27,188 nucleotides of DNA from Candidatus Caldarchaeum sp. (GCA_038831915.1 JAWBKB010000019.1:1-27188), one strand, 5' to 3'. Positions 5,440 through 26,888 are shown, counted from the first letter of the stretch. Numbers and translations: made by a program. Notes: a model not told the origin generated them from the letters alone.

Positions 5440-6801
5440 TTACGGAGAGAATCCTTCAGCCCATTCAAAGGTTCCCGTCGAATAGATGTACCTGCCCGCT
5501 TCGACCCACGTCGGCTTCCCGTCTACTGTCTTCACTACCCACAGAATGTAGTCGGAAAACGGCAGGTCTCCAGCCTCGTCAAGGGTAAGACCCAAAAACT
5601 CTTTAGCAATCGTCGGTAAAACGGCTCGAACGGCTTCGGCGTCGTATTTCTGGGTGGCCATCAGCGCGAGGGCGTAGGCCCAGACGGCGCTGTATGCCGC
5701 GTACGAATAGGCGTCCGGTGGAGAACGGCCGAGCACGCGTAACACCTCGGCGTCAACTCGGGCTTTTCTGTCCGGTGTTGTAGCGAAGAACAACGGGTTG
5801 ATCCACTTGACCTGTTCTGCGAACCTTGTTGCGGCTGGGTCCTGGAAAATCGTCGCCGTCACAGCTGTGCCGTCGCTGCCAAACCACCTTACTCTCTTGA
5901 GGTCCGGATATTGGTCCGCTACGGAAAGGAAAGCGACTACTTCGTCGAAGCCAATGATTTCGACCATGATTTTTTCAGGCGATACTCCTTGACCAATTAA
6001 TTCTTGCACCTTCGAATTCAGAGTTGAAACTTCGGCCGAGAACTCGGTTTTGTCGGGGGCGTATCTGAGCTCGAGAGCGACGTTCAAACCAAGCTTTCTA
6101 GCCTCGCCCGATGAAACCGTGTGCAACCCGTCTCCCCATGCGTCTCCTCTCCAAACTAGCAGAACATGAGTTACGCCCATGAGCTTAGCAAACCTTGGAC
6201 CTATCGGGCCTTGAATGTCGTCAGCAGTTGTGAACCTAAACACAAAGTCATTCGGTATCTTCAGGTCAGGAGCCGTCGATGACTGTGAAATCAGCAAGAT
6301 TTTGTTAGTGTCAACAAATCCTTTGATCTGTCGAATTTCAGCCGAAGTCATCGGTCCGATTACCAGCCTCACTCCTCTAGCATAAAGGCTTCTGATTTTC
6401 TCTTCTGCAGTGGCGGGTGCGCACGCCGTGTCTTCATGTACGACCCTTATCCTAAAGCCTGCTCCTGCACTGGCGAGAAATTCATTTACCTCTCTTGCGG
6501 CGAGGTCTATGGCGACTTTTTCGTTCTCCGCATAGGATGATAGCACGGCGCTTAAGCAGAGTAAGCTACCGATCGTGACTTCACCTGTCAATCCTCCCGC
6601 TGCTGTAACCGTTCTTTCAACAGTGGCGGTAGTAGTGACCGTTTGGCCAGCGCCAGCCACGGTTATCGTTACTGTAGTGGTTTGCCCTGGAGAAAGAACC
6701 GGGCCGAGGCCTATGCCGCCGATGAGAAGCCCGACAACCAAAGCAACTACTGCAGCGATGCCTGCAACCGAAGAAGAAACCGCTGAATTTTTGCTTTTCA
6801 T
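5440..6801 (-). CDS. Liv-type ABC transporter substrate-binding protein, membrane-anchored, with Thr-rich linker
   Basis: N-terminal hydrophobic anchor, TTTVTITV linker, IGPMTS, SQSSTAPDL, FRFT, DAWG motifs. Confidence 0.9.
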   Translation of the reverse strand: MKSKNSAVSSSVAGIAAVVALVVGLLIGGIGLGPVLSPGQTTTVTITVAGAGQTVTTTATVERTVTAAGGLTGEVTIGSLLCLSAVLSSYAENEKVAIDLAAREVNEFLASAGAGFRIRVVHEDTACAPATAEEKIRSLYARGVRLVIGPMTSAEIRQIKGFVDTNKILLISQSSTAPDLKIPNDFVFRFTTADDIQGPIGPRFAKLMGVTHVLLVWRGDAWGDGLHTVSSGEARKLGLNVALELRYAPDKTEFSAEVSTLNSKVQELIGQGVSPEKIMVEIIGFDEVVAFLSVADQYPDLKRVRWFGSDGTAVTATIFQDPAATRFAEQVKWINPLFFATTPDRKARVDAEVLRVLGRSPPDAYSYAAYSAVWAYALALMATQKYDAEAVRAVLPTIAKEFLGLTLDEAGDLPFSDYILWVVKTVDGKPTWVEAGRYIYSTGTFEWAEGFSP

Positions 6802-6919
6802 GGATTCGTGTTTTCCATATCATATATATAAATCTTTCCATAAATCCGCATGCGTCATCAAAACCCGCCCAGTATGTACCTAATCATTATTAGTTTGTTC
6901 GTACTTCTTTTTTGCCAAG

Positions 6920-7858
6920 ATGCTAGTCTTCGACCCGATTTTCAGGGACGCGTTGATTTATGCCAGTATGCTCAGCCTCCTCACGATAGGCCTCACGTTG
7001 AATTATCTTACGACTAAGGTGCCGAATTTTTCGCATGGAAGTTTTGCTTCGATCGGCATGATGACTATGCTCACCGTGACCGAGTTGTTCAAGGCGCCGG
7101 CGTATTCGGCGTTGGTTCCCGCGTTTCTGTTGGGCGGCGGAGCGGCTTTGCTACTTTACCTGTTTATTTTAAGGCCGTTAATTTCCCGAGAAGCGAGTCT
7201 CGTTTCTCAAATGGTTGCCACGATCGCTTTTGAACTTGTGATGATCGCAGTTCTCAACATCTACGCTGACTTTTTCACACAATCCTTCAAAATTCAGACA
7301 AGAGGTTTTCTGATTAGAAAGAATGATATGAGAATTTTCGGTGAGCCGGGTGTCTTTATCGTCGCTCCCGTTTTGACTGTTTCGACCGTTATTACGCTGT
7401 ATATGCTCTTGACGCGAACGAGGTTTGGCATCGGTTTAAGAGCGGCTATTGAGAATCCATCGTTGGCCGGAACAATCGGCATAAACGTGAAAAGGGCGTA
7501 CACTTATTCATGGTTTCTCGCTGGAGGTCTTGGCGGTGTGGCTGGTTCTCTCCTTGCTCTATGGTTTCAGGGCAGCCCCAACTACGGCAGCGAAATGCTG
7601 ATCAGCATTTTTGCGGCATCTATAGTGGGAGGTCTTCAGAACATTTACGGAGCTGTCGCTGGAGGATATTTGCTAGGGCTCGCTGAGATCCTGGGAACCC
7701 GGCAGCTTGGCATTACTTTCGGCCCGTGGATAACCGTGTACAGGCCCTTGATTCCGATTGTTTTGATGGCTGTCACCTTGCTAGTTATTCCTCAGGGTCT
7801 TGTTTCGCTGAGATTGCGTAGGGTTCGCGCCTTGTTGTCTAGAGGTGCGGTGCGTTGA
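6920..7858 (+). CDS. livH: Branched-chain amino acid-type ABC permease (LivH-like)
   Basis: GLTL...NFSHG, TRFGIGLRA...N...A...GIN, IVGGL..IYGA. Confidence 0.9.
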   Translation: MLVFDPIFRDALIYASMLSLLTIGLTLNYLTTKVPNFSHGSFASIGMMTMLTVTELFKAPAYSALVPAFLLGGGAALLLYLFILRPLISREASLVSQMVATIAFELVMIAVLNIYADFFTQSFKIQTRGFLIRKNDMRIFGEPGVFIVAPVLTVSTVITLYMLLTRTRFGIGLRAAIENPSLAGTIGINVKRAYTYSWFLAGGLGGVAGSLLALWFQGSPNYGSEMLISIFAASIVGGLQNIYGAVAGGYLLGLAEILGTRQLGITFGPWITVYRPLIPIVLMAVTLLVIPQGLVSLRLRRVRALLSRGAVR

Positions 7859-8991
7859 TGGACCAGCAACTGTTAATCTTTGTGTTTGACATCATTTCTT
7901 ACATCGCCATTTATCTGATTGTTAACACTAGCCTTAACCTCGAATATGGTTTGACCGGCATACCTAACTTTGGTAAAGTTCTCGCCGTGGCCGGTGGCGC
8001 GTTTGTTGTTGGAGCAATACCGGGTCGGGTTTTGGCTGACCAGTTGAAAATTCTTCAGGGATACGCGGCGGTGGAAAACGACCCTGTGTTATCCGAATGT
8101 CTTCGAACACAGGTCCAAATCAAGCCGCGAATTTTGGAAAGAATTGACTATATTGAAGATAACGCGGTTGTGATGGATTGTATACGCCGGGTGATGGCTG
8201 ATGACCCGGTTTTATCTTTGAGTGTTTTGATTGCGACAGTCGCCTTGGCGGCTGTTGTAGGTGCGGGTCTCGGTTTTGTCGCTTCCTATCCGGCCATCCG
8301 TCTCCGTGAAGACTACCTTGCCATGACTCTTCTCGCCATGGGTGAAATGCTGCGTCAAGTGGGATATCTTGAAAGAAACTTCGTGGGCGGCACTCTCGGT
8401 GTTTCTGTTCCAGACCCATACGGCTGGTTAGGGCCGAGCAGGTTTTATGCATCAGCTTTAGTAATTTTGTTTGTGGCGGCTCTTTTCTTTTTTTACATTC
8501 GGTCGTTGACGTTTTCTCCCGCAGGTCGGATGCTTAAAGCTGTGCGGGACAGCGAAATGGCTGCAGAAGTTCTCGGAGTCGACGTTGTGAAGCTGAAGCA
8601 GAAAGTGTTGCTGGTTTCTTCTGCGATGGCTGCTGTGGCGGGTGCGTTATGGGCCTTCTATTCCCAAGCTGTCCATGCAAATGTTTACGATAGGTTTAAC
8701 TGGACTTTCTGGCCTTGGGTGATGGTTATAATCGGCGGAGCTGGGAATTACAAAGGTGTTTTGCTGGGAACGACGGTCTTCGTGGTTCTTAAACGATTGG
8801 TAGACACGTACAGGTATGTGTTGGAGCCTTTCATTCCTTTCAGCCTCGTTTGGCTTGACAGGCTTCTTTTCGGGCTTGCGTTGATCATTGTCCTGCTTGT
8901 TCGTCCTCAGGGTATTTTGCCGGACAAGCCAACTCCCACCATAAAGCTTGCGAAGGCCCGGGAAATTCTGGAGAAGCTTTCGGCGAAATGA
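7855..8991 (+). CDS. livM: Branched-chain amino acid-type ABC permease (LivM-like)
   Basis: LNLEYGLTGIPNFG, RLREDYLAMTLLA, SPAGRMLKAVRD, IIGGAG, RPQGI. Confidence 0.9.
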   Translation: MMDQQLLIFVFDIISYIAIYLIVNTSLNLEYGLTGIPNFGKVLAVAGGAFVVGAIPGRVLADQLKILQGYAAVENDPVLSECLRTQVQIKPRILERIDYIEDNAVVMDCIRRVMADDPVLSLSVLIATVALAAVVGAGLGFVASYPAIRLREDYLAMTLLAMGEMLRQVGYLERNFVGGTLGVSVPDPYGWLGPSRFYASALVILFVAALFFFYIRSLTFSPAGRMLKAVRDSEMAAEVLGVDVVKLKQKVLLVSSAMAAVAGALWAFYSQAVHANVYDRFNWTFWPWVMVIIGGAGNYKGVLLGTTVFVVLKRLVDTYRYVLEPFIPFSLVWLDRLLFGLALIIVLLVRPQGILPDKPTPTIKLAKAREILEKLSAK

Positions 8992-9506
8992 GCCGCGAAA
9001 ACGAGTCTGAAACTTTTCTGCCCCGGGTTGGCCGCGTTCGTAAAAGCCATCCCCGTGTCGAAGCTTTCGGCGCGATTGATGAGCTTTCGTCTTTCATCGG
9101 GTTGGCACGGTCTATGGTTTCAGACGCGGAGACGAAAGAAATTTTGAAGAAGGTTCAGAATAGCTTGTTTCACGTCGGCTCATATCTTGCTGTAGCGAAT
9201 CATCCGATTGACCAAGCTCTTGGTGTTCGCGGTGAGCTGGAAACATTTGAAAGGAAAGTTAAGAAGATGCTGCCTCCTTTGACGCGTTTTATTTATCCTG
9301 GCGGGGTTACGGCCGCCGCGGCCCTGCATGTTTGCCGTGCGGTGGCTCGAAGGGCTGAAAGAACTTTGGTGCGCCTTTCGGAGCAAGAGCCTGTCGACCA
9401 AGCTGTGATTTCTTACATGAACTATCTTTCCAAGTTTTTCTTTACCGTCGCGAGGTATATCAACGCTGTTGACGGTGGTGTCGAGGAGGAATGGGTTTCC
9501 CGCTAA
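8988..9506 (+). CDS. PduO/MMAB-type cob(I)alamin adenosyltransferase homolog (degenerate N-terminus)
   Basis: RVRK..PRVEAFGAIDELSSFIG, FIYPGG, LHVCRAVARRAER, FTVARYIN. Confidence 0.85.
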   Translation: MSRENESETFLPRVGRVRKSHPRVEAFGAIDELSSFIGLARSMVSDAETKEILKKVQNSLFHVGSYLAVANHPIDQALGVRGELETFERKVKKMLPPLTRFIYPGGVTAAAALHVCRAVARRAERTLVRLSEQEPVDQAVISYMNYLSKFFFTVARYINAVDGGVEEEWVSR

Positions 9507-10213
9507 GCTTTTCGTTTTTTCGCGGCTTTGACCATGAAATCCAGCAGAAGCTCGAAAACGAATAGAAGAGGCGTGGGTTTGAGGAATTTCGTAGCCCCTA
9601 AGTTGAATGAAGCGTTGAAGGATGGCCTCCGCATTTCGGCCACGTCTCCGAACCAAATCTGCAGAAGAAGCTTAACTTTTGGGAAGAACGTGTAGGAGAA
9701 TGCTGTTCCACCCATTTTTTCTCTTTTCCCTCCTATACTTCGTGAAATTTCTTCGAACAGTGGTTTGTTGTATCCGAAATGCTTCTCCAAAGGTCTCGTC
9801 ACGTTTTTTTGGTAGTGGTAGAGGAAAGCAGGCTGTTTAAGCAGTTGGTCGAGAGGCACCCATGTGTCGGAGACGGCCCCTCCCTCGCCTAACAAATACT
9901 CTACTATGACGAAGGCGAGTTTGTCGTCGGCGCGTTTTCCAGTCATCAAGTCAACAACCATGTGATTGTCCAGCTCCACCGTGTAGGTCTTGTGCAGAAC
10001 ATTTACGATGTATCGGCCTGCTCGCCCATCACCACCAGGCAAATACACTACGTCACATTTCTTCATGGTCGCAACGTGATTGACCTTAACAAGCCTTTCA
10101 AACGATTCTTTAAGCCAACGCGAAATGGTTTCGGGTGAGGCGTCTGGAGATTGTTCTACAGGCTTCATCGCTTTCAAAAACCACGCCACATGAATCGATA
10201 TATCTTTTAACAA
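9503..10213 (-). CDS. Hypothetical protein, DUF3786-like (true start may be the internal ATG, MKPVEQ)
   Basis: 236-aa ORF; YLL...WVPL...PL...FG and FFPKV.L...W.GD pattern resembles DUF3786 proteins. Confidence 0.55.
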   Translation of the reverse strand: MLKDISIHVAWFLKAMKPVEQSPDASPETISRWLKESFERLVKVNHVATMKKCDVVYLPGGDGRAGRYIVNVLHKTYTVELDNHMVVDLMTGKRADDKLAFVIVEYLLGEGGAVSDTWVPLDQLLKQPAFLYHYQKNVTRPLEKHFGYNKPLFEEISRSIGGKREKMGGTAFSYTFFPKVKLLLQIWFGDVAEMRRPSFNASFNLGATKFLKPTPLLFVFELLLDFMVKAAKKRKA

Positions 10214-10231
10214 ATAAGCTTGTCATAACTC

Positions 10232-10246
10232 AAAAAAGAAAAAAAG
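10232..10246 (-). terminator. Oligo-T terminator downstream of the archaellin remnant
   Basis: Two T-runs separated by one C on the minus strand, starting about 15 nt after the archaellin stop at 10262. Confidence 0.5.
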
Positions 10247-10261
10247 GGGAGGAGGACTGTG

Positions 10262-10637
10262 CTACGTCAAATCCATCGCAGGGTCGAAAGACGGCGGCAA
10301 CCTTCTTTCAACTTTGAGGAGCGAACCCTGAGGAGGTTTGATTTCGACGCTGAAAACGTCGTTTGGCTCTATGCTGGCTCCGAGTCACGTTGATTTTGAC
10401 CGCCCAGACTTCGCCGTATTCGAGAACGGTGTCTCCGTCACCCGTCACTTGGTAGACGGCTGTTATCGTTGAGTTGTTGGGGTAAATGTTCTCGCGGAAA
10501 ACGGCCCTGTCCCTGTATGTAATCACAAATTTACCGGCCCTCATATCGACTTCGCCTTTGCCAACCGATGACTTGATGTAAACTACAATTTCAGTAACCG
10601 TCGTTCCCTTGCTTCTCGCGACTATCTGACCGCGACC
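10262..10637 (-). pseudogene. arlB: Archaellin (ArlB/FlaB) C-terminal fragment, 5'-deleted and frameshifted
   Basis: GQIVARSKGTTVTEIVVYIKSSVGKGEVDM...GDGDTVLEYGEVWAVKINV, a shift near 10382, then IEPNDVFSVEIKPPQGSLLKVERRLPPSFDPAMDLT*. The class III signal peptide and N-terminal helix are absent. Confidence 0.8.
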
Positions 10638-11285
10638 GGGTCTTTGAAGAATTCGGTGTACATGCTGAAGCTCAGCGATTTCGGCCTCATGAACACACTG
10701 CTGAACAAGTTAGAGTCAAGGCTGAAAATCGGTGTTTCGCAAACCCTCTCAGTGAAAACCCTTGGTGTCGAAACCCACGGCAGACTCGGCGAAAGAACAT
10801 TTTCAGTCCTAGCTGAAATGCTTAAATCAGGCGCGCGGCCCAGCCACGCATGCAACATCCTCAGCGAATACGTCGCGACAACTCTCATGTATGACAAAAG
10901 AAAAGAACAGATAACGTCAACCCTCAAAACACTTTCCATCCCTCTACACGCCACGCTCGCCGCGACATTCGCCCTGCTGACGACACTTCTGTCCATTCTA
11001 TCGCAAATCTCTTCACTGCTAGGAAGCCAACTCATGATAATACGGCCAATCCCAGCCAAAACAGTAGTCACCTACTTCTACACCATAATCGCCGTCACAT
11101 CCCTGATAACGGCGTTAAACATCTACCTAGCCGAAGGCGACTTCATGTCCACCCTAAAATACTACCTTGGAATCATTCTCACAGTCAGCGGAATATCGTA
11201 CTTCGTGATGTCGACATCAAGCGAACAACTTCTTTCAAGCTTCATGGGACTAACCCAAAGAATACAAAACCTTTCTCCAGGGTGA
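10638..11285 (+). pseudogene. arlJ: Archaellum platform protein ArlJ/FlaJ, C-terminal part only
   Basis: DFG.M..LL.KL..RL..G...ETHG...SG..P...ILS...KR.Q followed by three TM segments matches the second T2SS-F domain. About 215 aa, versus roughly 450-580 aa for full ArlJ. Confidence 0.7.
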
Positions 11286-11719
11286 ACCAGAAAATGGCTG
11301 AAACCGCCATAATCCCACCTCCCAACGTTATCCCGCTCCTCTTTTTCGCCGCGTTGGCTGCATGCGTCGTCATCCTCCACCTACTCCTCATAATCATAGG
11401 TTCTCGGAAGCTCTCTATCCAACCATCAATTGCTCCAGTTCTGCAACCTGCGCCACGAAACTTGACCTCGCCGCGTTCAACAACCGTCCCGACAAAAACA
11501 GAACCTACACCGCCTACCCCTTCAAAATCAGTCGAAGACTTTCCAAAACGCCTTGAAAAAATAGACGAACTCCTCAACACACTTGAAACCATGGTTAAAG
11601 CAAAGCAGGAAAACACTAAGCACCCCGAAGCAGAAACAATCATTCAAACTGAATCACAACAAGAAACCGACATTAGCGAAATCGTCCGACTAGCCAAATC
11701 GCTTAAAAGAGAAATATAG
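11282..11719 (+). CDS. Single-pass membrane protein with Pro/Thr-rich linker and coiled-coil tail (possible archaellum accessory)
   Basis: One hydrophobic helix, PTPPTP linker, charged helical segment; start overlaps the arlJ stop (alternative ATG 11294). Confidence 0.6.
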   Translation: MNQKMAETAIIPPPNVIPLLFFAALAACVVILHLLLIIIGSRKLSIQPSIAPVLQPAPRNLTSPRSTTVPTKTEPTPPTPSKSVEDFPKRLEKIDELLNTLETMVKAKQENTKHPEAETIIQTESQQETDISEIVRLAKSLKREI

Positions 11720-11842
11720 AACATAATGACTTTGTCTAAACCGCCGAACCGCCAACAATGATATCTTTGTAAGGTCGATTTGCCAGGGGTTTTTCTCTTT
11801 CGCTGACTAAACGCTTAATACTTCGCAAGAGTTAGCGGTGCT

Positions 11843-12823
11843 ATGCTCAAACCACCCGTGGAACAACTTGAAAAATATTACAAAACCATCAGGTCTCCAA
11901 GGATGAAAGTAATTCTGTCAGTCCAAGCCGAAGCCAACAGAGCCGTCCGCAGCTGGCTTGATTCACATGGATTTCTAGAGATTCTTCCACCGATAATCGG
12001 ACCCGTAACCGACCCAGGTATAAGGGGCGCGAAACAAGCCACGATAGACTTTTACGGAAAAGAATACAAAGTGATGAGCAGCGCCATCCTCTACAAACAG
12101 ATGCTTGCAACCGCGTTCGACAAAATCTATTTCTTCTCACCGAACATCAGGCTGGAACCACTCGAGTCAGCTACGACAGGCAGACACCTCGTCGAATTCG
12201 TACAAATCGACATCGAAGAAGCCGACATCGACTATAAGGCTGCTATGTCCACCGCCGAACAACTGCTAACCCATGTAGTGAACCACGTCGCCGAAACCAT
12301 GAAAAAAGAATTAGAAGCACTTGGAAGAACTGTTCCAAGGTTTAAGCCACCTTTCCGGAAAATCAGCCACGCCGAAGCCGTAGAAATCCTCCGCGCCCAC
12401 GGGGAGCCGGTCAACCCCAACGCAGAAATTCCATGGCCACAGGAAGAAAAATTGTCGAAGATCATCAACGAACCATTCTTTATAATGGACTATCCCCGTG
12501 GAGCGAGAGGGTTCTACGACAAAGAAGACCCATCAAGACCCGGAATACTCAAAGACTTTGACCTAATGTATCCGGAAGGGTTCGGAGAAGCAGCATCAGG
12601 GGCCGAACGTGAATATGAATACGGCAAAGTCTTGGCCCGGCTTCGTGAAAGCGGTGAAAACCCAGCGAAATACGGATGGTATCTCGACATGCTGCGGGAA
12701 GGAATAAGGCCGACGGCGGGATTCGGCATAGGTGTTGAAAGGCTAACCCGCTACCTCTGTGGTCTACAAGCAGTGTGGGAGGCGAGACCTTATCCGAAAG
12801 TGGCCGGCATCTATTCACCGTGA
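11843..12823 (+). CDS. Archaeal-type asparagine synthetase A (AsnRS-like catalytic core without anticodon-binding domain)
   Basis: 326 aa; TDPG, SSAILYKQ, SPNIRLE...RHLVEFVQIDIE (motif 2), GEAASGAERE, AGFGIGVERL (motif 3); no N-terminal OB fold. Confidence 0.88.
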   Translation: MLKPPVEQLEKYYKTIRSPRMKVILSVQAEANRAVRSWLDSHGFLEILPPIIGPVTDPGIRGAKQATIDFYGKEYKVMSSAILYKQMLATAFDKIYFFSPNIRLEPLESATTGRHLVEFVQIDIEEADIDYKAAMSTAEQLLTHVVNHVAETMKKELEALGRTVPRFKPPFRKISHAEAVEILRAHGEPVNPNAEIPWPQEEKLSKIINEPFFIMDYPRGARGFYDKEDPSRPGILKDFDLMYPEGFGEAASGAEREYEYGKVLARLRESGENPAKYGWYLDMLREGIRPTAGFGIGVERLTRYLCGLQAVWEARPYPKVAGIYSP

Positions 12824-18706: not shown

Positions 18707-19246
18707 ATGTTTTACGTAGGGGAGCTGTTAAGCGACAGCGTCATAGTATGGGACATAGCGCAGTCCCGCAGCCTATACAAAGAAGGTTACTACGGGAAAC
18801 CGCTTGGCATACCAAAGCCGAAAGATTTCAACTTCAATACACCGTTAGTTCTAGACCTCGTCGAAGCCCTTTACCTAGCAAAAAAGCAGAGACTCAAAGT
18901 AATACGCCAATCGAAAGAAATGACACCCGAAGAATTGGAACAACATGCTTCGATGATTGACAAAAACTTCCCCAGCAGGTATAAAGTCTACGAAGATTTG
19001 AGGGAAAGGGGTTTTGTTGTTCTGCCCGGAATCAAATTTGGAAGCGACTTTGCAGCGTATAGACATGGGCCTGGAATCGACCACGCACCTTTCATAATTC
19101 AAGTGAAAACAGAGAACGAAGGTCTTTCAGCTCTCGAAATAATCAGGTCAGGCAGGCTAGCTACATCGGTCAAAAAACACTTTACCATATCTGTCCCCAC
19201 AGACCAGAAAGTCGTCTACCTTATGTTCGAATGGTGGAAGGCCTAA
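18707..19246 (+). CDS. endA: tRNA-splicing endonuclease, catalytic subunit
   Basis: EALYL, VYEDLRERG, GIKFGSDFAAY, DHAP and SVKK give the Tyr-His-Lys triad; GKPLGIPKPK loop. Confidence 0.95.
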   Translation: MFYVGELLSDSVIVWDIAQSRSLYKEGYYGKPLGIPKPKDFNFNTPLVLDLVEALYLAKKQRLKVIRQSKEMTPEELEQHASMIDKNFPSRYKVYEDLRERGFVVLPGIKFGSDFAAYRHGPGIDHAPFIIQVKTENEGLSALEIIRSGRLATSVKKHFTISVPTDQKVVYLMFEWWKA

Positions 19247-19902
19247 GAAGTTTTTCTGAAAACGGCGTGAAGCGTTTTACCCACGCGTTTAAGGTCCACC
19301 AGCTCGTGATGTGTTTTCTGCGACCAGTCGATAAGGTCTACTTCAGTGGCCGGGTCGCCGGTTATCACGTGAAGCATCAGACCTAAACCTACGTGAGTTC
19401 TCATGAAATCTCCAATCTGTGTCAGAATATTTTCACATGTCTCGCCGAAAACCGGTAGTTCGTAATCGGGTACAGCTTTCAAGCAGACAACTCCTCTCTC
19501 ACGGTTTATTCCGAGATATTGTTTGGCGGCTTCGTCCGCTTGCATGGCGCCGATAAATACGTGTTCAGTCGTGATTTCGGCAAGCCATCCCTTCTCGTAA
19601 ACGTCTTCGGCGAGCTTACTCGGGTCGTTGATTATGTCGTCGTTGACACGTTGGATTCTGAGTTCGAAAGGAGCAAGCACCGCCACGTCGGTCTTAGACG
19701 TGCTCACCACTGCAAACGCCGTGCGGCGTCTAACCAGTGTTGCCGCCGCCCTGACTGATATTTTTCTCGGTTTTCCTGTGAAGAAGAGAAGCGGCTGCGT
19801 AATGCCGACTCGAACGACATCGCCTAATGGTTTTAGCCATAGGTCGTGTTCAACGTAGTATAGCCTGTCATCAGGTAATACGCATTCGTCAGCTGTTTTC
19901 AA
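19243..19902 (-). CDS. GcvH-like (lipoyl-carrier fold) - TusA/SirA-like fusion protein
   Basis: N-domain LPDDRLYY..H.W...VRVGIT...VSTSK...LAP...VN...P...DVYEKGWL; C-domain G.TC...LHVITGDPATEVDLIDW...HEL...FRK. TTG 19902 overlaps the rhodanese TGA. Confidence 0.8.
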   Translation of the reverse strand: MKTADECVLPDDRLYYVEHDLWLKPLGDVVRVGITQPLLFFTGKPRKISVRAAATLVRRRTAFAVVSTSKTDVAVLAPFELRIQRVNDDIINDPSKLAEDVYEKGWLAEITTEHVFIGAMQADEAAKQYLGINRERGVVCLKAVPDYELPVFGETCENILTQIGDFMRTHVGLGLMLHVITGDPATEVDLIDWSQKTHHELVDLKRVGKTLHAVFRKTS

Positions 19903-20750
19903 TGATGCCTCTCGATGGGAAATCTCACTAGGTTCCCCCACTCAGTCCAGCTTCCATCGTAGACTTTGACGTTAGGATAGCCGAGTAGATGTTTGAGGAC
20001 AAACCAGGTTACGCTGGCTCTTTCTCCTATTCGGCAGTAAGTTATCACGTCTTTTTCAGGCGTCACTCCTTTCGATTCGTAAAGTGTTCTGAGTTCTTCA
20101 GCGCTTTTGAATGTTCCATCTTCCCTGATGGCTTGACCCCATGGAATGTTGATGGCGCCGGGAATGTGGCCTCCTCGTTGAGCGTGTTCGGTTGGATATT
20201 CAGGAGGAGCGGTGATTTCCCCCGAAAATTCAGCCGGAGACCTGACATCCACCAAAACCAAGCTCGGGTTTCCCACCTTGCCTCTTAACAATTCGTCCAA
20301 GAAAATTCTGTTCTCGATGTTGACTTTTTCAACCCGATAGGTCGCGGGTTTTGGAGTCGGAAGTTCTTTAGTTAGCTCTCCTCCGGAATCAATCCATTTT
20401 TTCCTACCCCCGTTCAAAACTTGCACTTTTTTATGTCCGTACATTTCGAAAACCCAGAAGGCGAAGGTGGCGAACCAGTTGTTGTAATCCCCGTATAATA
20501 TCACATGAGTGTCGTTGCTTACGCCGAGCCGGGACATCAGTGCTTCGAATTCTTCGGGCCCGATGATGTCGCGGACTGTTTGTTTGTTCATGTCTTTTCT
20601 CCAGTCTATGAGCAAAGCACCTGGAATATGGCCCTGTTCGTACGCCATCTTAGGATCGTAGTCCACCTCTATGACCGCAATACCGGGTTTGGCTAGATTT
20701 TGTTTGAGCCATTCAACTTCCACTAACGCGTTTGGGTTCGCATAGGTCAT
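19899..20750 (-). CDS. Two-domain rhodanese/thiosulfate sulfurtransferase (SseA/CysA/TtuD-like)
   Basis: GHIPGA twice, LNGG...W, DVRS..EF.G, active site YCRIGER, YDGSWTEW. Confidence 0.95.
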   Translation of the reverse strand: MTYANPNALVEVEWLKQNLAKPGIAVIEVDYDPKMAYEQGHIPGALLIDWRKDMNKQTVRDIIGPEEFEALMSRLGVSNDTHVILYGDYNNWFATFAFWVFEMYGHKKVQVLNGGRKKWIDSGGELTKELPTPKPATYRVEKVNIENRIFLDELLRGKVGNPSLVLVDVRSPAEFSGEITAPPEYPTEHAQRGGHIPGAINIPWGQAIREDGTFKSAEELRTLYESKGVTPEKDVITYCRIGERASVTWFVLKHLLGYPNVKVYDGSWTEWGNLVRFPIERHH

Positions 20751-20816: not shown

Positions 20817-22529
20817 TCAGCCATACCGATATTTCACGCCGTGGCCCCACCATTCGTGACCAAACTTGACTATCTCGGGCGGGCCGATGACCCCGCATGT
20901 GCCGCAGGCCACACAAGCCACATGATCGAATTTCAGCAGCCCGTTACGGATGTCTTCGCGAGTAACCTCGACCGCTTTTCGAGCGGCCGCTTCATGGTCA
21001 AACCCCTGCGCAAGAAGTTTTTCCAAGTTGAAGCGGTAAAGGTCTTTGAATGAGCCGTAAACTCCCTTTTCCGTGACCAATGTATAGCAGTTGACTGGAC
21101 ACATCGGAATCCAGGCCTTGAGCCCTTGGAGTGATGCTTTGTTTTCGTCGACGATGATGTGAGACCTTGTCTTGTCTTCGTCGTAGTCGAGCTTTCCGAT
21201 GAGTTGCTGAATGAGTTGCAAAGCATCGCGATCGTTGGGTATGGTGTTGGGCTGCGGTGATTTCGTGGACCTGCCCAATCCTAAAGTGAAAACGATTGAA
21301 GGGGCAACAGAGTAGAATATTTTCCGCTCGATGAGTACGCTGTTGGTTTTCGACTTTCTGACTCTGTCGTACAGCGGCTCAAGATATCGTCTGTAGACCG
21401 AAAGCGACGTTTCTCCGAAATCCTTTCTTTTCTCCGCTTCGATGTAGGTGTTGGCCGCAGCTATTCCTGAGGCGATTGCGGGCCGCATGCCGTCGATCAA
21501 AGCTCCAATTTTGTAGAAAACACCTAGCGAGTCGCCGGCCATGAGAAAGCCGGGTGCATATGGTTTTTCGGGCAAAACCTTGTAGCCTCTGGGAATGTTG
21601 TGAGCCGAATATTCGAGCAGAGTCGCTCCTTCAAGCAAAGGCCCGAGAAAGGGATGGTTTTCCATTTCGGTGAGAAGGTCGATGGCCTTTCCAACCTCTG
21701 TAAAGTTCGTCGATAGCGTAGCCATGGCTTGTGCGAGGTCGAGGACAATACCAACAGATACAGTGTCTTTGTTGGGGTAGACAAAGCCGCCCCCAACGAT
21801 TCCATGCATGAAATCGCCGAGCAGATAGACCGATTTGTATCCATCCCCGTATGAGAAAAACTCATCAATTCTGCTCGAAGAAACCCTGAACACATGCTTC
21901 ACTCCATGATATGTTTTCTCGGGCGTCATCTTACCACGAATGCCGGCTTTTTCAGGCAAAAGAGATGTTACACCCGCGCAATCGATGACGAGGTTAGCGT
22001 AAATTTCTTCGTCGGGTGTTTTGACGCCGATGACTTGGCCATTCCTCCAGATTAAGTCTTCAACCGTTTTGCGTGTGACAACCATCGCTCCCTCTTCAGC
22101 CGCGACCGAAGCCATCCATCTGTCAAATTTTACACGGAGAACCGAATAGTCATGACCCGTCGACGCATCCAGCATCGTGAGTCCGAGTCTCGTCAGTAGC
22201 GAGGATTTGTCCATTTTCAGATAGCGGTACGTGGATTCTCCGTTCATTCTTTTGGGCTGGCCTAGAAGGTAAAGCTCGTGGCCGACGATTTTACGCTCAA
22301 CTGGTGCAACACTTTCAAATTCCGGAACGAGATCAATAAGTCCCAAACCGTTCACGAAAGAACCGAAAAGAACACCTCCAGAAACATTTCTCTGTCCCGG
22401 TATCTGAGTTTTTTCAAGGACGAGCACGTCGTAGCCGCTTCTCGCTAGCTTAATCGCCGCAGCACTGCCGGCTGGACCAGCCCCAACAATAGCTACGTCG
22501 AATTTATTTTCCATTTTTTCATCCACCAA
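20817..22529 (-). CDS. fixCX: FixC-like FAD oxidoreductase fused to FixX-like ferredoxin
   Basis: VGAGPAG, NVSGG, R.KFDRW, GGGFVYPN, EYSAHNIP, AGD...GM..AIASG; C-terminal CPVNCY, CVACGTC and GV.YRYG. Confidence 0.88.
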   Translation of the reverse strand: MVDEKMENKFDVAIVGAGPAGSAAAIKLARSGYDVLVLEKTQIPGQRNVSGGVLFGSFVNGLGLIDLVPEFESVAPVERKIVGHELYLLGQPKRMNGESTYRYLKMDKSSLLTRLGLTMLDASTGHDYSVLRVKFDRWMASVAAEEGAMVVTRKTVEDLIWRNGQVIGVKTPDEEIYANLVIDCAGVTSLLPEKAGIRGKMTPEKTYHGVKHVFRVSSSRIDEFFSYGDGYKSVYLLGDFMHGIVGGGFVYPNKDTVSVGIVLDLAQAMATLSTNFTEVGKAIDLLTEMENHPFLGPLLEGATLLEYSAHNIPRGYKVLPEKPYAPGFLMAGDSLGVFYKIGALIDGMRPAIASGIAAANTYIEAEKRKDFGETSLSVYRRYLEPLYDRVRKSKTNSVLIERKIFYSVAPSIVFTLGLGRSTKSPQPNTIPNDRDALQLIQQLIGKLDYDEDKTRSHIIVDENKASLQGLKAWIPMCPVNCYTLVTEKGVYGSFKDLYRFNLEKLLAQGFDHEAAARKAVEVTREDIRNGLLKFDHVACVACGTCGVIGPPEIVKFGHEWWGHGVKYRYG

Positions 22530-23601
22530 GCATTCGGATAAGTTCAGGCACGACCTGATATAGGTCTCCCTTTATGCCGTAATGGGCGATTTCAAAGATT
22601 GGTGCTTTGGGGTCTGTGTTGATTGCGACTATTGTCTTGGATTTGATCATTCCAACTCTGTGTTGAACGGAGCCGCTTATTCCCAGAGCAATGTAGATGT
22701 CGGGGGAGACGGTTTTGCCTGTTTGTCCAACCTGTCGCTCCGAAGTAACCAAGCCCTCTAGCTCTTTCAGCTCGGCGTGGACCAGAGCCCTCGTAGCACC
22801 GACCTCTGTCTTTAACCCGTATTTGTCTTTCAGGAAATTAGCCAGCCTAGCGGCGAGCTCAAACCCTTCTCTCGGGTTTCTTGGGTTGCCCTGCCCATCC
22901 TTCAAAACACCCAACCCAACACTGACGATGATATTAGCACCTTCGAGGTCGATGGGGCTCTTCGGTAGCTCTTTTTCCTCGATGATTTCGACTGAGAAAT
23001 CTTCAGGATTCGGCTGGGGCCTGAACCTTATTTTCTCGCCTTCTCTTGTTCTGTCTTCGGGCAGTGGTTCAAAGTTTCCAGGCCGTATGCTGGCTATCTG
23101 GGGACGATGTCGTGGTGTGTAGATTTTCGCCACCCTAGTCGCAAAGTCGGGCCGAATCTGAGCGATAACGTTCTTGTAAATAGTGTTGGTGGGTCCGTAG
23201 TAGTAGTCTTCGACTTCGACGTTTATGTTGTCGGTCGCCAGTCCTGTGTTAAGCCTGTACGCAACTCTGGGAGAAAGGTCTCGTCCCAGCTCGTCTGCTA
23301 CAAAGAGAAAAGCATAGGGTTTTAGTTTATCAACCATTTCGCAGATGACACGGGTGTAGGGAAGAGCGAGGTATCGCGCAAGCCATGGCTCGTCGGCATA
23401 AACAACGACGTCAGCGCCACGCACGATGGCCTCCTCGATTGGTGCGTCAAGGTTGTAGCCAACCAGCACAGCTCCGACTCTTTGCCCAATTTTATCTGCA
23501 ACTTTGCGTGCGGCTGCTAAAATTTCAAGGCTCGGCCGCGTGAGCTTGCCTTTTTCTGCCACGCAGTAAGCCCAGACATCGTTATACTGCTCCAACGACA
23601 A
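22519..23601 (-). CDS. fixB: Electron transfer flavoprotein alpha subunit
   Basis: GRDLSPRVA..L.TGL, RP, VSVG.G, GATR, QVGQTGKTVSP..YIA.GISG..QH..G, AINTD..APIF. Confidence 0.93.
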   Translation of the reverse strand: MSLEQYNDVWAYCVAEKGKLTRPSLEILAAARKVADKIGQRVGAVLVGYNLDAPIEEAIVRGADVVVYADEPWLARYLALPYTRVICEMVDKLKPYAFLFVADELGRDLSPRVAYRLNTGLATDNINVEVEDYYYGPTNTIYKNVIAQIRPDFATRVAKIYTPRHRPQIASIRPGNFEPLPEDRTREGEKIRFRPQPNPEDFSVEIIEEKELPKSPIDLEGANIIVSVGLGVLKDGQGNPRNPREGFELAARLANFLKDKYGLKTEVGATRALVHAELKELEGLVTSERQVGQTGKTVSPDIYIALGISGSVQHRVGMIKSKTIVAINTDPKAPIFEIAHYGIKGDLYQVVPELIRMLGG

Positions 23602-24829
23602 CCTTCAAACCTCCAAACAATTCCTCAACCAAATCCTGCAACGTAAAAACGCCTACGACATTCCTTGCTACCAAGTCTTTGACGAGTTCCTCTGGTAAGT
23701 TTTTAACCGTGTCTCCTTTCTTGAAAGGCCCATAGGTTCTGTCATTCCATGAAATTTTTTCATGATCAGTTTTGAACACTAATGTTTCTCCGACGAACTT
23801 TTGGGTCGGTGGTTTAGCGATTTCGTATCCGGGTCCGACGATGGTCGGCGAGCCGTAGAATCCGATTTTCGAGGGGTCGGCTTCGATAAAGTCAGCGTTC
23901 CACACAAAAGTTTTCCTAACTTTCTGTGGGAAATTGTTGGCCCTTACCTGTTTCTGGTTGTTCGCTAACGGAACACGTGGCTCATAGTGATGGTCGATGG
24001 TTAGGAGACAGGGAATCGAAACCCGAACTTTTTGGAGAATGTTTCCAATTTTCCTTTCTGCGATAACGTATTCGAGGTCAGGCGAAATCTCAAAATCCCT
24101 GGTAAAAGCGATGCTTGGAATCAGTTTTCCAATCATTTCGCTCAACGCTTCCGCTGTTTGAGGACCGGTGTTTCCTGTCTCGCCGTCGCTGGTCTTCATC
24201 CCTGCTAAGATGATGAATTTGGATAACCTTTTCTTGTATTTCTCGAGCTCCGACAATAGAGTCTGTTTGTCTATTTTTCCAGCAGCGTATTGTTTGATGA
24301 GGGAGTCTTTCACGCTGCTCAGCTTTGAATAGATTATGTGAGGTATCAGGTTATTTTCGTAGAGTTCTTCCGCTACCGCGACGACTTTTTCTACTGAATC
24401 GTTTTGAACTGTCTGAATAAGTTTGTCAGCGGCTTCGTTGTGTGTTTTGAGGTATTTGTTGATGCCGCAGGCAAGTGTGTACGAGGTGGCCCAGGTATCA
24501 GCTCCTGCCATTCTTCTGTCGCTCAGTATTATTCTTTCGTCGAAACCTTCGAACGAAATGCGGGGAACAAACCTGCTTTCCTCAACTGGTTCAACCAAAT
24601 CGTTGGTGATTGGTATAATCTTAGGTTCTGGGCCCATTGTTATGCCGACTATTTTGCCGCCCACAGATTTTTTGATGTAGTAAGCGGCCTCGATGGCTTT
24701 GACGTCGTATGGGTTAAGGACAAGTTCCATTTCCTCACGGCGCAGCACGCCGGAAACCGTGACGACCTGTGTTGTTTTCGCAGGAACACCTTTGAAAAGA
24801 CAAATTATCAGCATTTTTCCAGCCGACAC
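23582..24829 (-). CDS. fixA: Electron transfer flavoprotein beta subunit, enlarged
   Basis: KGVP, NPYD..AIEAA, TMGP, SDRRMAGADTWATS, G.KTSDGETGNTGP, G..GSPT.V. Confidence 0.9.
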   Translation of the reverse strand: MSAGKMLIICLFKGVPAKTTQVVTVSGVLRREEMELVLNPYDVKAIEAAYYIKKSVGGKIVGITMGPEPKIIPITNDLVEPVEESRFVPRISFEGFDERIILSDRRMAGADTWATSYTLACGINKYLKTHNEAADKLIQTVQNDSVEKVVAVAEELYENNLIPHIIYSKLSSVKDSLIKQYAAGKIDKQTLLSELEKYKKRLSKFIILAGMKTSDGETGNTGPQTAEALSEMIGKLIPSIAFTRDFEISPDLEYVIAERKIGNILQKVRVSIPCLLTIDHHYEPRVPLANNQKQVRANNFPQKVRKTFVWNADFIEADPSKIGFYGSPTIVGPGYEIAKPPTQKFVGETLVFKTDHEKISWNDRTYGPFKKGDTVKNLPEELVKDLVARNVVGVFTLQDLVEELFGGLKVVVGAV

Positions 24830-26241: not shown

Positions 26242-26888
26242 GGTACTGTCAACTAGGTATTACGCCTCCTTCTCTTGTTTGGGTTCTGAGGAGTAGGTTA
26301 TGTATTAGGGCTATTCCTGCTGTTATCTCCTCTATATTCTTTACTGTCTTGGAGTTTATGTTGTTGTGGAATCTTCTGGTCCTGTCCTTCAGCTCCCTAA
26401 ACCACCTCTCTATCCTATTCCTATTCCCAAAGGAAGTACTCTATTCCAAGCCTCTTCAATGCCCATGGATACCATGGACCCCTATCCACTACTACCACCG
26501 GCTTACCTTCGCATGCCCTTAGGACCATCCTAAGGAAAGTATAGACCTACCTCTGGAAGCGTATACCGCTATTATCTCTCCAGTATCAACGTCTACTGCA
26601 GACCATACGTAGACCCACTCTCCCAGCCTCTTCTCAACAGTCTCATCGACGGCTACAAGCCTCCTGGGCTTACGCATGGAATTGAAGACCCTCCCCAGCC
26701 TATGAACCCACTCCCCAACACTCTCCCTAGAGGCATACCTCTCAGACACATCCCTAAAGCTAAGCCTTCTCAGAAGAACTATGAAGAGGCTGGAGAAGCG
26801 CTCAACCAAGCAGTCGAAGACATGCACAGCCGATAGGAGAACAGCCCAGGCCATAACCATTCCGAGAAAAGCTTAAGTTGACAGTGCC
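26242..26888 (-). mobile_element. IS6-family insertion sequence, 647 bp, defective
   Basis: Terminal IRs GGTACTGTCAACT (26242-26254) and GGCACTGTCAACT (reverse complement of 26876-26888), 12/13 identical; encloses a DDE transposase remnant; no target duplication visible. Confidence 0.9.
26249..26860 (-). pseudogene. IS6-family DDE transposase pseudogene
   Basis: AVDET...YVWSAVDVDT / VVVDRGPWYPWAL / NRIERWFRELKDRTRRF in three segments; shifts near 26538 and 26435; stop lies inside the IR. Confidence 0.88.

Follow-up and report, generated by a model that had tools for sequence, protein, structure and literature searches.

A widespread archaeal fusion of an H-protein domain with a TusA-type domain, and its tandem rhodanese, as a candidate lipoate-independent sulfur relay

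TusA, represented by TusA/YhhP of Escherichia coli, is the sulfur carrier of tRNA thiolation, molybdenum cofactor synthesis and dissimilatory sulfur oxidation, and in the pairs GlpE-thioredoxin and rhodanese-dihydrolipoate the persulfide of a rhodanese is reportedly discharged onto a dithiol, yielding sulfide and a disulfide. Sulfur trafficking in the cytoplasm is known to involve LbpA, TusA and rhodaneses. In the Rhd-TusA(-DsrE2) relay of Allochromatium vinosum, a rhodanese hands sulfane sulfur to TusA (Stockdreher 2014 as cited in Tanabe 2024, PMC11094781; here and below the papers are cited for excerpts of their text). The lipoate-binding proteins (LbpA) linked to the heterodisulfide reductase-like system of sulfur oxidation (sHdr) differ from GcvH in two strictly conserved Cys, one near each terminus, and none of the 95 LbpAs studied lacks the lipoyl Lys (Cao et al. 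2018, eLife, PMC6067878). In Thioalkalivibrio LbpA2 the Cys pair occupies positions 7 and 145, at disulfide distance in a model; it is dispensable for recognition by the ligase, and the excerpt leaves the function of the pair open (2026 preprint). Here we analyze a window (the whole stretch of DNA under study) of 27,188 nucleotides (nt) from Candidatus Caldarchaeum sp. (GCA_038831915.1 JAWBKB010000019.1:1-27188), in which one minus-strand gene encodes an H-protein (GcvH-type) domain joined to a TusA-type domain, next to a gene, also on the minus strand, for a tandem-domain rhodanese; an earlier note, made from the sequence alone, had proposed the pair as a candidate sulfur relay.

In this fusion the Cys pair of LbpA is kept and the lipoyl Lys is mostly lost across the family, and the TusA Cys (Cys156) is kept and its CPxP motif is lost. 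We put at roughly 60% the probability that the fusion is a lipoate-independent, Cys-based sulfur acceptor or carrier, and the dedicated partner of the thiosulfate-type (CRIGER) tandem rhodanese encoded beside it. The parts of the pair all come from known families, and what is new is their combination as a sulfur-relay variant. No description of an H-protein/LbpA-TusA fusion was found in the excerpted literature searched, of which the supplements (among them, for Cao 2018 and Tanabe 2023/2024, LbpA alignments and distribution tables) might list some. Residue numbers of the fusion count from a TTG start codon that gives a protein of 219 amino acids (aa; Table 1).

The fusion is a genuine two-domain H-protein and TusA polypeptide, as the earlier note had supposed and as Pfam, the family profile, the structural model and Foldseek all bear out. 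Pfam GCV_H matches the N-terminal domain with E 1.4e-11 (44.8 bits, where the cut-off is 22.2), and the NCBIfam GcvH models are all below their cut-offs (PRK01202, 48.7 versus 117 bits; TIGR00527, 29.2 versus 115.85). The Pfam TusA family (PF01206) is sub-threshold on the window's fusion (19.8 versus 28.6 bits) and covers profile positions 27-70 alone (the C-terminal 44); some fusion homologues do carry a precomputed PF01206 match. An AlphaFold2 model from a 37-sequence family alignment has a mean predicted local distance difference test score (pLDDT) of 96.3 and a predicted template modeling score of 0.89. In Foldseek searches of the PDB, the N-terminal part finds the Thermus thermophilus H-protein (1onl_A, E 4.9e-11, template modeling [TM] score 0.88) and the C-terminal part finds E. 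coli TusA (3lvj_C, E 2.5e-4, TM score 0.85, root mean square deviation 1.5 A). The family profile matches GcvH at E 1.9e-25 and E. coli TusA/YhhP (1dcj/3lvj) over its full length (positions 146-218 against 7-79) at E of about 2.5e-10, so that the C-terminal domain does have a TusA fold. Lys70 aligns with the lipoyl Lys of the canonical GcvH of the window's genome (VSTSK versus VESVK), and also with that of the E. coli and T. thermophilus proteins; Cys156 aligns with the CPxP Cys of the three stand-alone TusA proteins of the window's genome.

We assessed conservation over 142 distinct fusion family sequences. Cys156 is kept in all of them, Cys140 in 141 and Cys7 in 140; one of the two exceptions at Cys7 is a 5'-truncated row, and the other, P0057, is the one full-length family sequence without Cys7 and the sole sequence without Cys140. 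The usual motif at Cys156 is C-[S/A/E]-x-[V/I], with CENI in the window copy; Pro follows this Cys in five sequences, and the full CPxP (as CPGP) is present in two. The observation in the earlier note that the TusA Cys had outlived its CPxP motif extends to nearly the whole family, and the 'two more Cys' that it reported are present and near-invariant, although they are not extra residues but the published signature pair of LbpA. The lipoyl position is different: it holds Arg in 88 sequences, Lys in 45, Asn in four, Thr in three, and Val and Phe in one each, with at least 21 interchanges of Lys and Arg on a family FastTree built without the hairpin columns. Because of these interchanges, the sequences suggest that the feature kept at this position is a positive charge rather than a modifiable Lys. 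The conservation that the note had looked for among homologues therefore holds for the three Cys and fails for the Lys, and its idea of the lipoyl site as a conserved sulfur acceptor is not sustained.

The alternative that survives best is that the members keeping Lys are true lipoyl proteins, in which a (dihydro)lipoyl arm on Lys70 accepts the rhodanese sulfur and Cys156 and the Cys pair assist. Lys70 is in exact register with the lipoyl Lys, its hairpin (residues 69-74) is the center of the predicted rhodanese interface described below, some family members retain ESGK- or ESLK-type motifs, a lipoate-ligase (LplA-type) catalytic domain (PF21948, E 1.7e-30) is encoded in the window's genome, and dihydrolipoate is a known rhodanese acceptor in the excerpts of Cao 2018 (PMC6067878). 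We nevertheless consider this unlikely, given that the lipoyl position is Arg in most sequences and non-basic in nine of the 142, that repeated interchange of Lys and Arg is the pattern of a conserved charge and not of a modified Lys, that the window's STSK motif is without the usual Glu, and that the ligase gene is not near the fusion locus. Moreover, because the 95 LbpAs of Cao 2018 all keep the Lys, its loss in most fusion members would mark a changed mechanism.

Judged by its sequence, the N-terminal domain appears to be of LbpA type rather than a generic GcvH, which is not to conclude that it is an LbpA. Among the weaker database matches are stand-alone proteins of about 145 aa with an N-terminal G-C, a C-terminal G-x-x-C and an ESGK motif, whose source names suggest an origin in Aquificota and in a Hydrogenisulfobacillus. 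A species of the window's genus (G006) encodes an LbpA-like protein of 143 aa with C5, ESAK and C140; its gene sits between genes for an LplA-type lipoate-ligase catalytic domain and for DsrE, and on the divergent side are HdrC-like, HdrB-like (CCG), HdrA-like, ferredoxin and NarI-like genes and an ArsR regulator. This sHdr-like cluster (G006:C6:52000-68000, about locus positions 5534-12463) also includes a 116-aa open reading frame (ORF) without a Pfam match, and it is absent from the window's genome. The window's fusion aligns with the G006 protein from Cys7 to Cys140 (62.8 bits, E 2e-17), slightly better than with its own genome's GcvH (52.0 bits), and hhalign of the family profile against the G006 protein gives a probability of 99.9%. 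The family profile scores Cys-pair stand-alone proteins of other Thermoproteota at about 126-138 bits, against about 106-119 for most matches of canonical GcvH length. Isoelectric points follow the same order, with a family median of 6.8 for the fusion N-terminal domain, 5.0-5.9 for the Cys-pair proteins and 4.1-4.7 for the canonical GcvH proteins examined. In a quick tree of the N-terminal domains (86 rows, after 44 canonical rows were dropped at random), the fusions cluster together and the Cys-pair stand-alone proteins fall between them and a canonical GcvH clade with 98% support.

The fusion is found independently of the sHdr system. Pfam scans of the 26 window ORFs find no gcvT/P, Hdr-like or lipoate-ligase genes, in agreement with the earlier note, and Hdr-like genes are not among the recurrent neighbors of the fusion in 80 distant loci. 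In the window's genome (G000; 95.6% complete), the GCV_H matches are the canonical GcvH, the fusion and one marginal match, and a stand-alone LbpA was not found. The CCG domain occurs there only in a LutB-like protein and in a protein like ETF:(methyl)menaquinone oxidoreductase (EMO; ETF, electron transfer flavoprotein) with NarI, Fer4 and CCG domains; three ordinary, stand-alone TusA genes are also present in the genome, and DsrE genes adjoin two of them. The EMO-like protein (G000:C6:2839-6099) has 673 aa, with a NarI-like membrane domain, a 4Fe-4S domain and two CCG domains, is encoded beside an ETF subunit gene, and resembles the EMO arrangement mentioned in the excerpts of Tanabe 2024 (PMC11094781). 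All combinations are found within the genus: the fusion without sHdr or LbpA (G000), sHdr and LbpA without the fusion (G005), and both (G006). We therefore rejected a dependence of the fusion on sHdr, and our best reading is that the fusion-rhodanese module works outside the sHdr sulfur-oxidation pathway.

The fusion is widespread in Archaea, being found in Caldarchaeales, non-ammonia-oxidizing Nitrososphaeria, Bathyarchaeia, Marsarchaeota and Thermoplasmata. A word-indexed search returned only about a dozen relatives, and the organism labels seen were Candidatus Caldarchaeum; an exhaustive search of representative sequences gave 255 matches at E <= 0.001, with 29 full-length-matching proteins of 215-249 aa among the 150 listed. 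A scan of one genome per species, run with a 12-row sub-alignment, identified 196 stretches encoding the fusion, of which the best 80 serve here as distant loci; the metagenome-assembled genomes that contain these 80 are labeled Thaumarchaeota/Nitrososphaeria, Bathyarchaeia, Marsarchaeota, Thermoplasmata, Methanomassiliicoccales and 'Methanobacteriota', together with one 'Dormiibacterota' bin. A full-length fusion is present in 32 of 76 genomes of the window's order and the fusion in 34 of 401 genomes sampled evenly from its phylum, and in the ESM Atlas both Pfam families occur together in clusters of 76, 228 and 70 members, mostly archaeal. Family proteins carry the source names 'hypothetical protein', 'glycine cleavage system H protein' and 'sulfurtransferase TusA family protein'. 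The contig binned to Candidatus Dormiibacterota, a bacterial phylum (DASPWZ010000014.1), encodes an archaeal-type fusion with a convergent rhodanese 94 nt downstream, as in Bathyarchaeia loci, which suggests mis-binning or gene transfer.

Of the two domains of the rhodanese, the C-terminal one holds the catalytic Cys in a CR-x-G-x-R loop, which reads CRIGER[S/A] in all 35 fusion-associated orthologues. We take a CRIGER-type loop to mark the thiosulfate rather than the mercaptopyruvate class, and the NCBIfam model of 3-mercaptopyruvate sulfurtransferase stays below its cut-off on this protein (139.9 versus 250). CRIAER replaces CRIGER in two of 19 orthologues from genomes without the fusion. 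In the Caldarchaeales, an orthologue lies immediately upstream of the fusion on the same strand in 25 of 30 loci; the other five loci all belong to one genus (g6), in which the rhodanese gene is on another contig. Of the 80 distant loci, 59 have an orthologue (50-61% identity) downstream of the fusion and on the other strand, in 56 cases within 400 nt, and the remaining 21 comprise 11 loci with a short flank and 10 with full flanks; among five genomes checked from the full-flank group, four carry the rhodanese elsewhere. Across the 76 genomes of the order, both genes are present in 32, the rhodanese alone in three, the fusion alone in none and neither in 41, and 33 of the 34 fusion genomes in the phylum sample have the rhodanese, counts of co-occurrence that are overstated because related genomes are not independent. 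The rhodanese is thus a conserved partner of the fusion, and the dependence is one-sided. Other recurrent neighbors (zinc-dependent alcohol dehydrogenase, polysaccharide synthesis, ABC ATPase, EF-2, SMC and Elp3) each occur in at most 13 of the 80 distant loci and were set aside as lineage synteny; the gene caller used on these loci was crude and recovered the fusion ORF itself in 52 of the 80.

Structure prediction of the pair (from alignments of 35 rhodaneses and 37 fusions) strongly indicates a physical complex in which contact is made by the former lipoyl hairpin and by the linker between the domains. The score of the complex, which is the model's own confidence, is 0.72 by ipSAE (interaction prediction score from aligned errors; runs of 0.73, 0.72 and 0.70), and the best of three controls scored 0.00; the mark is attained by 58 of 80 solved complexes and by two of 110 mismatched pairs, counts that hold only roughly for predictions from our own alignments. 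The runs share at least 93% of contacts, and the pLDDT of the partner is at least 88. The fusion is predicted to make contact through the former lipoyl hairpin with the strands that flank it (residues 58-62, 65 and 69-76), through the surroundings of the Cys140 linker (136, 147 and 149) and at the end of TusA helix 1 (166-170); the rhodanese does so through residues 32-40, 88, 116-128 and 178-186. On the rhodanese side, interface positions diverge more between the 35 fusion-associated and 19 fusion-less orthologues than other positions do (mean 0.43 versus 0.28): K117 is present in 34 of 35 fusion-associated copies and eight of 19 fusion-less ones and K128 in 33 of 35 and three of 19, position 120 is I, L or M in 35 of 35 with I in two of 19, and position 126 is the most group-specific in the entire protein. 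At position 40, Gly is invariant in the 35 fusion-associated copies and Trp is found in nine of the 19 others. The rhodanese partnership put forward in the earlier note has therefore held up well, being kept in two gene orders and in nearly all fusion genomes of the phylum sample, with a predicted complex that passes its controls.

By analogy with transfer from rhodanese to TusA and with dithiol acceptors of rhodanese, the pair could work as follows. The rhodanese would receive the former lipoyl hairpin and the interdomain linker on its N-terminal domain and linker and on a catalytic-domain loop that is conserved; Cys239 of the rhodanese would take up sulfane sulfur, most likely derived from thiosulfate, and hand it to a Cys of the fusion, whose triad of C156 with C7/C140 would hold it as a persulfide; and the persulfide would then be relayed onward, or resolved through a C7-C140 dithiol/disulfide. 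From there the sulfur might go to assimilation, to the thiolation of cofactors or tRNA, to detoxification or to oxidation; the earlier note had thought of lipoate assembly and of tRNA or molybdenum cofactor thiolation. The precedents, as excerpted from the literature, are that rhodanese transfers sulfur to TusA, that TusA co-purifies with LbpA in Aquifex, and that dithiols such as dihydrolipoate accept sulfur from rhodanese (Cao 2018, PMC6067878).

Several points weigh against this proposal. The transfer of sulfur to the fusion is something that we infer entirely. Neither Cys239 of the rhodanese nor Cys156 of the fusion is among the named contacts, and the model is for this reason read as a docking mode and not as a transfer geometry; the divergence of the interface positions has a one-sided Mann-Whitney p of 0.017, which relatedness of the genomes overstates, as it does co-occurrence. 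Lys is present at the lipoyl position in 45 of the 142 members, the window's protein included, and the backbone joining fusion, LbpA and GcvH in the N-domain tree is weak (Shimodaira-Hasegawa-like approximate likelihood ratio test 70), so that derivation from LbpA is not resolved by it. The 10 distant loci with full flanks have no adjacent rhodanese, and no rhodanese match was obtained in one of the five genomes checked from this group nor in genome G411. The genes are convergent in most lineages and hence not co-transcribed there. Finally, 105 of the 401 sampled genomes have the rhodanese, and in 72 of these (49 of the 56 genomes of one family among them) the fusion is missing; the rhodanese must accordingly have a function that does not need the fusion.

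Somewhat less probable again than lipoylated Lys-keeping members is a role in which the three Cys, with or without His178 and His212, bind a metal or Fe-S center, which would make the fusion a subunit of the rhodanese, redox or structural, or else its regulator. In favor of this, the three Cys hardly vary although the TusA CPxP context is lost, the TusA Cys is not brought up to the rhodanese Cys in the predicted docking mode, and the window's family has Etf/FixCX electron-transfer genes directly upstream. The two His are fairly conserved in 58 sequences (46 for His178 and 51 for His212), but neither attains 85% conservation in the 142-sequence set. The Cys pair, moreover, is common to LbpAs, where the preprint excerpt has it modeled at disulfide distance and not as a metal site (2026 preprint); Cys156 is at the exact position of the TusA persulfide, with Pro following it in five members, two of which have the full CPGP; and the Etf linkage belongs to one family only (13 of 30 Caldarchaeales loci, none of the 80 distant loci).

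It is improbable that the fusion is unrelated to the rhodanese (supplying, for example, tRNA or cofactor thiolation with the sulfur of a different donor, with adjacency reflecting inherited synteny or joint cassette transfer): the 72 genomes with the rhodanese alone, the convergent genes of most lineages, the separate contigs in genus g6 and a complex score that is the model's own would suit such a view, but adjacency outlasts the change from tandem order in Caldarchaeales to convergent order elsewhere, co-occurrence holds where adjacency is lost (genus g6 and the four of five genomes), the fusion occurs without the rhodanese in none of the 76 genomes of the order, the rhodanese interface residues are specifically fixed in fusion-associated copies, and the complex far outscores its best control.

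Table 1. Coordinates of the fusion, its domains and key residues, and the rhodanese in the window
Feature	Position	Strand	Details
Fusion gene	19243..19902	minus	219 aa plus stop; start TTG 19902-19900
LbpA-type H-protein domain (assigned from sequence)	19477..19902	minus	About residues 1-142; contains C7, C140 and the former lipoyl hairpin; Pfam GCV_H, Foldseek
TusA-type domain	19246..19476	minus	About residues 143-219; family profile against TusA/YhhP, Foldseek
Cys7 codon TGC	19882..19884	minus	In ECVLP; N-terminal member of the LbpA-type Cys pair
Lys70 codon AAG	19693..19695	minus	In STSK; lipoyl-Lys position, not conserved in the fusion family
Cys140 codon TGC	19483..19485	minus	In GVVCLK, in the linker before the TusA domain; C-terminal member of the pair
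Cys156 codon TGT	19435..19437	minus	In ETCENI; equivalent of the persulfide-carrying TusA Cys
Tandem-domain rhodanese	19899..20750	minus	283 aa; CRIGER Cys239, codon 20034-20036; Pfam Rhodanese E 9.4e-40, two stretches

The longest ORF of the fusion (19243..19941, minus strand) would give 232 aa from a GTG at 19941. The likely start is instead the TTG at 19902-19900, because it shares bases, as TTGA, with the rhodanese stop codon TGA (19901-19899), has GAGAGG a few bases upstream, and is the aligned start of the homologues in the genus (one of which has ATG); fusion database entries of 219-220 aa begin with MKT. The codons and motifs that the earlier note had assigned to the Lys and the Cys (STSK, CENI, ECVLP and GVVCLK) are correct in the DNA, as is the overlap of the fusion start with the stop of the CRIGER rhodanese (TTGA at 19902-19899). 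Its translational coupling does not generalize, however: the TTGA overlap does not extend beyond the genus, the two genes are about 30-90 nt apart in other Caldarchaeales, and in other archaeal phyla they are convergent. At the opposite end, a convergent tRNA-splicing endonuclease gene (18707-19246, plus strand) overlaps the 3' end of the fusion gene by four bases (19243-19246).

Upstream of the rhodanese (20817-24829, minus strand) are an etfB-like gene, etfA and a gene for a 570-aa FixC-type flavoprotein, with junctions that overlap or measure 66 nt. The etfB-like protein is unusually long (415 aa), its N-terminal part alone matching ETF, and the flavoprotein ends in a Cys-rich ferredoxin-like tail. 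In 13 of 30 Caldarchaeales loci, every one of them from the window's family, etfB-etfA-fixCX precedes the pair on the same strand. This linkage was seen neither in genus g7 nor in any of the 80 distant loci, and we discarded it as a general feature while retaining it as a lead specific to the lineage. In the window's family, then, the module may be wired to the upstream EtfBA-FixCX electron-transfer genes, an order that recalls the Etf-linked hdr-lbpA clusters noted in the excerpts of Cao 2018 (PMC6067878) and Tanabe 2024 (PMC11094781). In one metatranscriptome run, contigs with 0-2 differences cover parts of the rhodanese, fixCX, etfB and a PhoU-like gene; no contig covers the fusion gene, although such contigs cannot show absence and DNA is possible in an RNA library. 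Elsewhere in the window, a 326-aa protein (11843-12823, plus strand) consists of a class II aminoacyl-tRNA-synthetase core alone (tRNA-synt_2, E 3.7e-61), with no anticodon-binding domain detected by the Pfam scan, and a 113-aa ORF (26519-26860, minus strand) weakly matches, below threshold, the beginning of an IS240-type DDE transposase domain (23.6 versus 27 bits) and may be a transposase remnant near the window end.

More speculatively than our proposal of a Cys-based acceptor, the family could be a lipoate-free form of LbpA, in which the hairpin has become a dock for the rhodanese and the TusA Cys together with C7/C140 makes persulfide or sulfide from thiosulfate sulfur, the two proteins forming a widespread, hitherto unrecognized thiosulfate-mobilizing module of aerobic and soil archaea that works without sHdr; we hold this to be doubtful as a whole, and if true it would show that the LbpA Cys pair is a sulfur-handling or redox site. 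The family in any case amounts to a natural experiment, since the Cys pair and the TusA Cys are kept and the lipoyl Lys is replaced in two thirds of members, and it makes the function of the LbpA Cys pair testable with two small soluble proteins, apart from lipoate. The covalent fusion also lends Rosetta-stone support to the LbpA-TusA contact suggested by co-purification in Aquifex. For annotation, the fusion marks an unannotated sulfur module in archaeal lineages abundant in soils and hot springs, and a GcvH label on it would mislead metabolic reconstructions.

Compared with the known systems nearest to it, the fusion shares with LbpA the H-protein fold, the Cys pair (Cao 2018, PMC6067878, as excerpted), a lower acidity than GcvH, the company of TusA and rhodanese-type sulfurtransferases, and the Cys-to-Cys alignment with the context-verified LbpA-like protein of its sister species. 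It departs from LbpA in the lipoyl Lys (strict in 95 of 95 LbpAs in the same excerpts, 45 of 142 here), in being covalently joined to a TusA domain, in having a tandem rhodanese as its conserved neighbor, and in setting: LbpA is encoded in or next to an sHdr cluster with a ligase, whereas the window's genome has no Hdr-like cluster and an unlinked ligase. With GcvH it shares the fold (TM score 0.88), and over 121 residues it is about 33% identical to the GcvH of its own genome, but it is without a conserved lipoyl Lys, has the Cys pair, is near-neutral and has no gcvT/P nearby; the canonical GcvH of the window's genome is encoded elsewhere. Its C-terminal domain is like TusA in the two-layer alpha/beta fold, the Cys at the N-terminus of helix 1 and a DDP-type motif after strand 2, and unlike it in that CPxP is mostly lost, the Pfam score is sub-threshold and the domain is part of a larger protein. 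As in the A. vinosum relay, a rhodanese gene adjoins that of a TusA-type carrier; in the excerpts on that relay, the rhodanese has a single domain, TusA is a plain CPxP protein and DsrE2/DsrEFH/DsrC are downstream, whereas the locus described here has a tandem rhodanese, an added LbpA-type domain and no linked Dsr or sHdr acceptor. Finally, C7/C140 could, by analogy, serve as a dithiol as in the GlpE-thioredoxin and rhodanese-dihydrolipoate pairs, although here the putative acceptor would be a dedicated protein that has a TusA-type Cys of its own and is predicted to dock through an H-protein hairpin.

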